DNA of 64,000 bases from Escherichia coli (GTDB lineage: Bacteria > Pseudomonadota > Gammaproteobacteria > Enterobacterales > Enterobacteriaceae), in NCBI RefSeq assembly GCF_003018115.1, contig NZ_CP027457.1; one strand, 5' to 3'. The number at the start of each line of letters is the position of its first letter. Position 1 is the stretch's first letter. The notes under the pieces were generated by a model that saw only the letters and a list, made by a program, of their open reading frames with translations, was not told the DNA's origin and ran no database searches. Shown piece after piece: positions 48,797-50,116 of this stretch. The position numbers and the translations under genes were made by a program.

Positions 48797-50096
48797 TTAC
48801 ACTGGTGTGTTCAGCAAATCGTTAACGGCATCAGATGCCGGGTTACCTGCAGCCAGCGGTGCCGGTGCCCCCTGCATCAGACGATCCAGCGCAGTGTCAC
48901 TGCGCGCCTGTGCACTCTGTGGTGCTGCGGCCAGAATGCGGCGGGCCGTTTCCACGGTCATACCGGGGGTTTCTGCCAGCACGCGTGCCTGTTCTTCGCG
49001 TCCGTGAGCCTCCTCACAGTTGAGGATCCCCATAATGCGGCTGTTTTCTGCCGCAACCGCTGCGGTGATCTGCGCGTTCACGTCCGGCTGCGCCGCGCTG
49101 GCGTTTTCGCCCTCCGTCGCTGGCACCACGTCAGTAACGTCAGCCTGCGAAGCAGTGGCTGAAACAGTTGTTGATTGAGTCTCTTTGGTCATTCGCCCTC
49201 CTGAGAGACGGGATTTACGTGCATCCAGTGCATCACGCATGACGGTGATCGCATCGGTGCTGTTAACAAGTTCATCAGCCAGTCCGGCATCAATGGCCTC
49301 CTGACCGCTGTACACTGCAGCCTCGGTATCCAGCACAGCCTGCACGGACAGGCCGGTATATGCCGACACCTTCTGCGCAAACATCTGGCGGGTTGCGTCC
49401 ATCCGGGACTGCAGTGTCTCCCGGACGTCATCCGGAAGATGGCTGTAGGGGTTGCCATCCACCTTATGGCTGCCGCTGTAAATCAGAGTGATTTCCACAC
49501 CCTGTTTCTCCAGCGCAGCACCGTAATTACTGTGAGCCATCATGACGCCGATGGAGCCTGTCCGGGCGGTCTGCGTGACCAGACGCCGGGAGGCGGCACT
49601 GGCAAGCAGCTGACCTGCACTGCAGTTCATGTCGTTGGCCAGCGCCCATACCGGTTTTATGTCACGCACACGGGCGATGATGTCAGCGCAGTCAAATGCC
49701 CCCGCCACCATCCCGCCGGGCGTGTCCATATCGAGCAGAATGCCGTCCACCATCGGATCGCTGGCAGCCTGTTGCAGACGGGCGATAATGCCGTTGTAAC
49801 CGGTCATCCCCGAGTACGGCTGCAGCGCCCGCGTCCGGCTGACCAGCGTGCCGGACACCGGCAGCACGGCGATGCCGTTCATGACCTGATAACTGCGGGC
49901 CTGTCGTGGTCCGTCATCATCACCGGATAATGCCAGCGTCGCGAGTGCCTCCTGGGCAGTCAGGCTGTCGCCGGACACCGCATCCATCAGGCGGCTGATC
50001 CCAAGCTGGCCTGCAAGCGCACAAAAGAAAACCCGCGCATAGGCGGGTTCAAGCATCAGCGGCTCATTAAAAGCCATGCTGGCAATATGCGGGAGA

Positions 50097-50116
<20 letters not shown>
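48797..50116 (-). CDS. C: Head maturation protease/scaffold C (GTG start) with nested in-frame Nu3 scaffold reading frame
   Basis: [31 protein letters not shown]... 439 aa from GTG at 50114-50116; S49-type protease fold; 20-nt overlap with B as in lambda. Confidence 0.85.

Follow-up and report, generated by a model that had tools for sequence, protein, structure and literature searches.

Sequence evidence on the GTG start of the lambda-type prohead protease gene C in a Qin-locus prophage of Escherichia coli

A lambda-type head module at the Qin locus

The DNA analyzed here (hereafter, the window) is a 64,000-nt stretch of an Escherichia coli chromosome (RefSeq assembly GCF_003018115.1, contig NZ_CP027457.1). 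The part from about 29000 to 64000 was found to be the Qin prophage locus, which runs from a truncated ydfJ, ydfK, pinQ and tfaQ to nohA, cspI, rzpQ, rrrQ and essD, and which here carries a complete lambda-like head and tail module. The head genes lie in the order A-W-B-C-D-E-FI-FII, with C placed between B and D/E and overlapping the 3′ end of B. Positions 34861..58700 of the window are practically identical to the corresponding prophage of E. coli 6409 (NZ_CP010371), with identities of 1.0000, 0.9999 and 1.0000 over three blocks, and insertions or deletions separate the two before 34861 and after about 58700. The relBE and hokD genes also occur at the 6409 locus, for which the comparison with the window covers other stretches.

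The Qin prophage is defective in E. coli K-12. Location at the Qin site, and the IS3 and IS1 insertions and pseudogenes of the near-identical 6409 prophage, would fit a cryptic element in decay that has ceased to express its head genes, in which case the choice of a start site for any of them would be moot. However, none of the head and tail ORFs in the window is broken and each has the length of its lambda counterpart, the C sequence is unchanged on at least 1000 contigs, and the substitutions within the clade still respect the reading frames; moreover, the identity of a start codon is independent of expression status. Decay on this scale is considered unlikely.

Several other features of the prophage and its flanks were recorded. 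A tail-fibre ORF at 31722..34802 (minus strand) is uninterrupted over 1026 aa, whereas IS3 splits the gene in the otherwise identical 6409 prophage; it is overlapped by long ORFs on both strands (33392..34399, minus; 33437..34204, plus; 33550..34299, plus). Rfam searches gave two cspA thermoregulator matches in the late/lysis region, at 56405..56790 (minus, 112.8 bits), which belongs to cspI, and at 59300..59692 (minus, 158.8 bits), in a stretch that is not colinear with 6409. An IS009 RNA match (31181..31379, minus, 220.9 bits) lies inside the tfaQ-like tail-fibre assembly gene, and a match to the Hfq-binding sRNA STnc560 (19569..19782, minus, 281.9 bits) lies in the host flank.

Start sites elsewhere in the head operon were also noted. 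The terminase large-subunit gene A (51898..53823, minus) has a GTG start and a 26-nt overlap with the small-subunit gene nohA/Nu1 (53798..54343, minus); this is a second GTG-in-overlap start in the operon, and PGAP annotates it likewise. For FI (46933..47370, minus), the start of the mechanical ORF at 47370 (145 aa) is 13 codons upstream of the PGAP and lambda start at 47331 (132 aa, MTKDELIARL). Gene D, which encodes the head decoration protein and is the next gene downstream of C, occupies 48455..48787 (minus) according to PGAP and the lambda annotation. Its mechanical ORF begins at 48793 with ATG TTT ATG (MFMTSKE; 48785..48793, minus), and the real start is the second ATG, at 48787 (MTSKE), as used in lambda, by PGAP and in two other records, and as seen in PDB chain 7vii_H, which begins MTSKE. 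Public records, which agree for C, are split on this point, with KT232076 and LR595866 using the first ATG.

Gene C itself spans 48797..50116 on the minus strand, or 1320 nt (439 codons and a stop), a length equal to that of lambda C. Lambda gpC is the prohead protease and a minor component of the procapsid, and lambda Nu3 is the scaffold, translated from an internal ATG. From its lambda C length, its Pfam matches and its identity to the 6409 gene, the window gene is predicted to encode a 439-aa fusion of prohead protease (S49 peptidase) and scaffold domain. The mechanically called ORF is longer: it covers 48797..50251 (minus), encodes 484 aa and begins at a GTG at 50251, which is 135 nt from the in-frame GTG at 50116. 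Peptidase_S49 (PF01343) scored 151.9 bits (curated cut-off, 24.9), the match covering residues 195-342 of the 484-aa ORF, which correspond to residues 150-297 of C. The nested scaffold gene, Nu3 (48797..49402, minus, 201 aa), begins at an ATG at 49402 and matches lambda nu3 at 5132..5737. This putative ORF is in the same frame as the C-terminal third of C, has the N-terminus MDATRQMFAQK and shows a Shine-Dalgarno (SD) energy of -6.9. Near-identity, synteny and the nested Nu3 place the gene in the lambda C family, and the Pfam match places it in peptidase family S49.

The nearest solved structures are those of SppA proteins (MEROPS S49; PDB 3RST, 4KWB and 3BEZ). Residues 81-298 of C, the protease domain, align with SppA with E = 6e-22 (3RST), and Ser166 of C aligns with the serine of the SppA 'AASGG' motif. 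Ser166 and Lys218, candidates for the nucleophile and the general base, are invariant in six diverged phage homologues, and in the phmmer alignment Lys218 is off the SppA lysine, which is five residues earlier. C differs from SppA in lacking a membrane anchor and in having a scaffold domain at its C-terminal end. The C protein is predicted to combine a serine protease domain of the S49 (SppA-like) type at its N-terminus with this scaffold domain, and the in-frame ATG at 49402 would also yield the latter as a separate product, Nu3.

The B/C junction and its agreement with lambda

Upstream of C lies gene B (50097..51698, minus), which encodes the 533-aa portal protein, matches Phage_portal_2 with 324.5 bits and corresponds to lambda B at 2836..4437. 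The GTG initiation codon of C occupies 50114..50116 and corresponds to lambda position 4418 (J02459); since B ends in a TAA stop at 50099..50097, the two genes overlap by 20 nt (50097..50116, minus). This figure counts the stop codon, with the first base of the GTG being 17 nt ahead of the first base of the TAA, and the C frame is the B frame +1. The preliminary description of this DNA had placed a GTG start for C inside the overlap, 20 nt before the B stop, and this codon is indeed present there on the minus strand. It is followed by the codons ACA GCA GAG CTG CGT AAT CTC CCG CAT ATT GCC AGC, and, read as fMet, it would give the 439-aa C protein.

The GTG is preceded by a strong SD sequence, GAGGAGGAG, at 50121..50129 (minus), with the core AGGAGG at 50123..50128 and a 6-nt spacer. 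The same nucleotides encode Glu-Glu-Glu near the C-terminus of B. The energy of the SD duplex with the 3′ end of 16S rRNA is -12.0 kcal/mol, a value reached or bettered at only 0.57% of the positions in B. The same AGGAGG hexamer is annotated as the ribosome-binding site (RBS), with the same start, in phage 434 (OL657226).

The junction is the same as in lambda. The lambda record J02459 places B at 2836..4437, C at 4418..5737 (439 aa) and nu3 at 5132..5737, and the window C shares with lambda C the GTG start, the SD, the 20-nt overlap, the 439-aa length, the nested Nu3 start and the gene order. In a three-way alignment of the window with lambda and phage 434, no difference occurs between -80 and +43 relative to the GTG. 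Over the whole gene, the window and J02459 agree at 1311 of 1320 nt and 435 of 439 aa, leaving nine nucleotide and four amino acid differences (S42R, T44M, V260A and K389E); the window gene further differs in that it sits in a Qin-locus prophage of the E. coli chromosome, whereas lambda C is in lambda. A megablast search against 50,697 phage records, with a 1701-nt query, returned lambda, 434, HK629/630 and others at 99.1-99.3% across the entire query, the value for lambda being 99.2%. Thus, the annotated lambda start coincides with the window GTG, which is the outcome of the alignment proposed earlier as a check, and the description of the locus as standard lambda B/C/Nu3 nesting agrees with the J02459 and phage 434 annotations, the Nu3 ATG being present at 49402.

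Public annotations point to the same start. The window C is 100% identical to E. coli 6409 RR31_RS08170 (WP_000123218.1), called an 'S49 family peptidase' by PGAP and having coordinates equivalent to 48797..50116; lambda C bears the same name, 'S49 family peptidase', in NC_001416. The 1320-nt CDS is annotated in six further sources: phage 434, E. coli 6409 (PGAP), and PhiR26_1, KT232076, YDC107_1 and 2G7b (records PV340555, KT232076, CP025712 and LR595866), the last four coming from other groups and other pipelines. Among about 15 billion collected proteins, the exact 439-aa protein, named S49 family peptidase, was found on at least 1000 contigs, and the 484-aa form was absent. This agreement is partly non-independent, having been propagated by lambda homology or by similar gene callers, whereas the comparative and substitution evidence described below is independent of annotation inherited from lambda.

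Candidate starts upstream and downstream in the C frame

Related junctions were collected by an IMG/VR scan, which yielded 80 loci, 76 of which have an ungapped junction and were used for the counts. The homologous start codon is GTG in 30 of the 76 (97-99% identical; the lambda clade) and ATG in the other 46 (80-83% amino acid identity). The ATG-type loci (within L038-L080) differ from the window in this codon, yet they carry a GAGGAGG SD at the same spacing, the 20-nt portal overlap with the TAA stop of the portal gene as in lambda, and an N-terminus shared with C. The same 20-nt overlap with a TAA stop was found in every related locus with a traceable portal frame. Each ATG-type locus has a stop codon in the C frame 3-66 nt ahead of the start, mostly a TGA at -24 and in one case (L043) a TAA at -3, which prevents a spurious extension in these loci. 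Over the 165 nt that lambda leaves open, each of the 38 unique ATG-type segments has one or two stops.

Phage D2 has a junction identical to that of lambda, with the GTG start and the same 165-nt open frame upstream. Gene 5 of phage 21 (M81255, 58% identity) also has its GTG start within the last part of the portal gene, with GAGGAG ahead of it, and includes a nested scaffold gene, gene 6; its N-terminus, RNLSHI..AFNEPLLLEPAYARVFFCA, aligns with that of C. The two genes overlap by 11 nt in phage 21, compared with 20 nt in the window, the phage 21 protein is three residues shorter than C at the N-terminus, and a stop interrupts the C frame 36 nt before the GTG. Aeromonas phiARM81ld and Proteus Saba have an ATG at the aligned N-terminus. 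GTG starts recur in diverged C homologues, namely in phage 21 (L005; M81255, 495; 58%) and in a further IMG/VR locus (L088, about 1010; 61%). Because GTG is used in these two and ATG in the group at 80-83% identity, the start codon has switched between ATG and GTG more than once in the family.

A longer C protein would require initiation at 50251 or at one of the other upstream GTG or TTG codons (50230, 50215 and 50155); its product, of at most 484 aa, would carry an N-terminal extension rich in Arg. In favour of this, both the window and lambda have an open C frame over the 165 nt that precede 50116, and these four near-cognate start codons fall within it. However, none of the four, at -135, -114, -99 and -39 relative to the GTG, has an SD, the energies being -2.4, -4.3, -2.8 and -5.7 kcal/mol, respectively, and the GTG at -135 is missing in some loci that are 97-99% identical (the L017 and L018 groups). 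The stops of all 38 unique ATG-type relatives, like that of phage 21, break the extension. The substitution pattern upstream likewise follows the B frame and not the C frame: of the 20 substitutions in these 165 nt within the lambda clade, 15 leave the B protein unchanged but would alter an amino acid in the C frame. In the comparison with the ATG-type relatives, the upstream part retains more amino acid identity when translated in the B frame (0.87) than in the C frame (0.49). Past the B stop the order is reversed, with 0.82 for the C frame and 0.56 for the B frame, at a nucleotide identity of about 0.8 on either side of the junction. Nor is it unusual for this off-frame of B to stay open over 55 codons; B, at 58% G+C, has open runs of 120, 116 and 61 codons in the same off-frame. 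The absence of the 484-aa sequence from public proteins also argues against a longer product. An upstream start for C was rejected on the poor SDs, the closure of the frame in relatives and the B-frame substitution pattern, and is regarded as highly implausible.

These results uphold the view that the 135 nt between the mechanical start and the GTG (50117..50251, minus) are an artefact of a frame left open within B, and that they code only for B. No in-frame ATG is present in the window anywhere in the 165-nt open frame upstream of 50116. The feature that would have spoken against the GTG, an upstream ATG with an RBS, is therefore absent, and the four GTG or TTG candidates are likewise without an RBS.

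The first in-frame ATG downstream, at 50077 (codon 14, MAFNEPL...), offers another candidate, ATG being the preferred initiator; here the GTG would be a Val-like codon in an untranslated spacer. However, 50077 has no SD (+1.9 kcal/mol), and the ATG after it has an SD energy of -1.9 kcal/mol. In 8 of the 76 loci, codon 14 is CTG or CTC instead of ATG. Codons 4-13, which precede 50077, are invariant at the protein level in 75-76 of the 76 loci even as the third position varies, synonymously, in eight of the ten codons, and must therefore be translated; codons 8-13 lie beyond the B stop, so that only translation of C can constrain them. In addition, alignment with phage 21, phiARM81ld and D2 puts their N-termini at codon 1. 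The conservation of the upstream codons and the loss of the ATG in eight loci led to the rejection of a codon-14 start, which is deemed very improbable.

The conservation of codons 4-13, the loss of the codon-14 ATG and the upstream stops together confine the start to codon 1. The SD, the comparative closure of the frame and the codon-level conservation strongly suggest that the GTG at 50116 is the translation start of C. The overall reading, with an estimated probability of about 0.96, is that positions 48797..50116 (minus) hold the C gene of a Qin-locus prophage with a lambda-type head module, that translation of C begins at the GTG at 50116, and that the 135 nt ahead of this codon code for B alone.

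Coupling at the junction and consequences for annotation

Judging from the geometry of the junction, the overlap would couple the translation of C to that of B to some degree, and the weak GTG would keep C minor relative to Nu3. In a more elaborate scheme, the junction would be a tuned coupling device, in which a hairpin partly masks the SD and the GTG, ribosomes terminating on B open the site, and the use of GTG in the lambda clade, where its relatives have ATG, lowers the amount of gpC and sets the portal:protease ratio. The 3′ part of the C SD (GGAGA) can pair with a UCUCC just past the B stop, enclosing the GTG (50088..50128, minus). A 140-nt fold of the junction was not better than shuffled sequences (z = -1.46), and RNAalifold, applied to 25 unique 65-nt junctions, recovered neither the SD helix nor covariation, with the SD about 50% unpaired in both the GTG and the ATG types. 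Given the z score of -1.46 and a consensus fold that does not contain the SD helix, an SD-masking RNA structure was rejected as evidence, and a tuned device of this kind seems doubtful.

The GTG start of C is already known: it is annotated for lambda in J02459 and is ordinary. A full-text literature search found no text on the GTG start of lambda gene C with Nu3. The expectation that the start affects annotation was borne out in part. A longest-ORF call does add 45 spurious residues, but current gene callers already pick the GTG; public annotations use it as well, so nothing changes. The start site matters for annotation hygiene only, as a naive longest-ORF call would burden the head protease with those residues, and the comparative data provide a confirmation, from sequence only, of a start site that was assigned decades ago.
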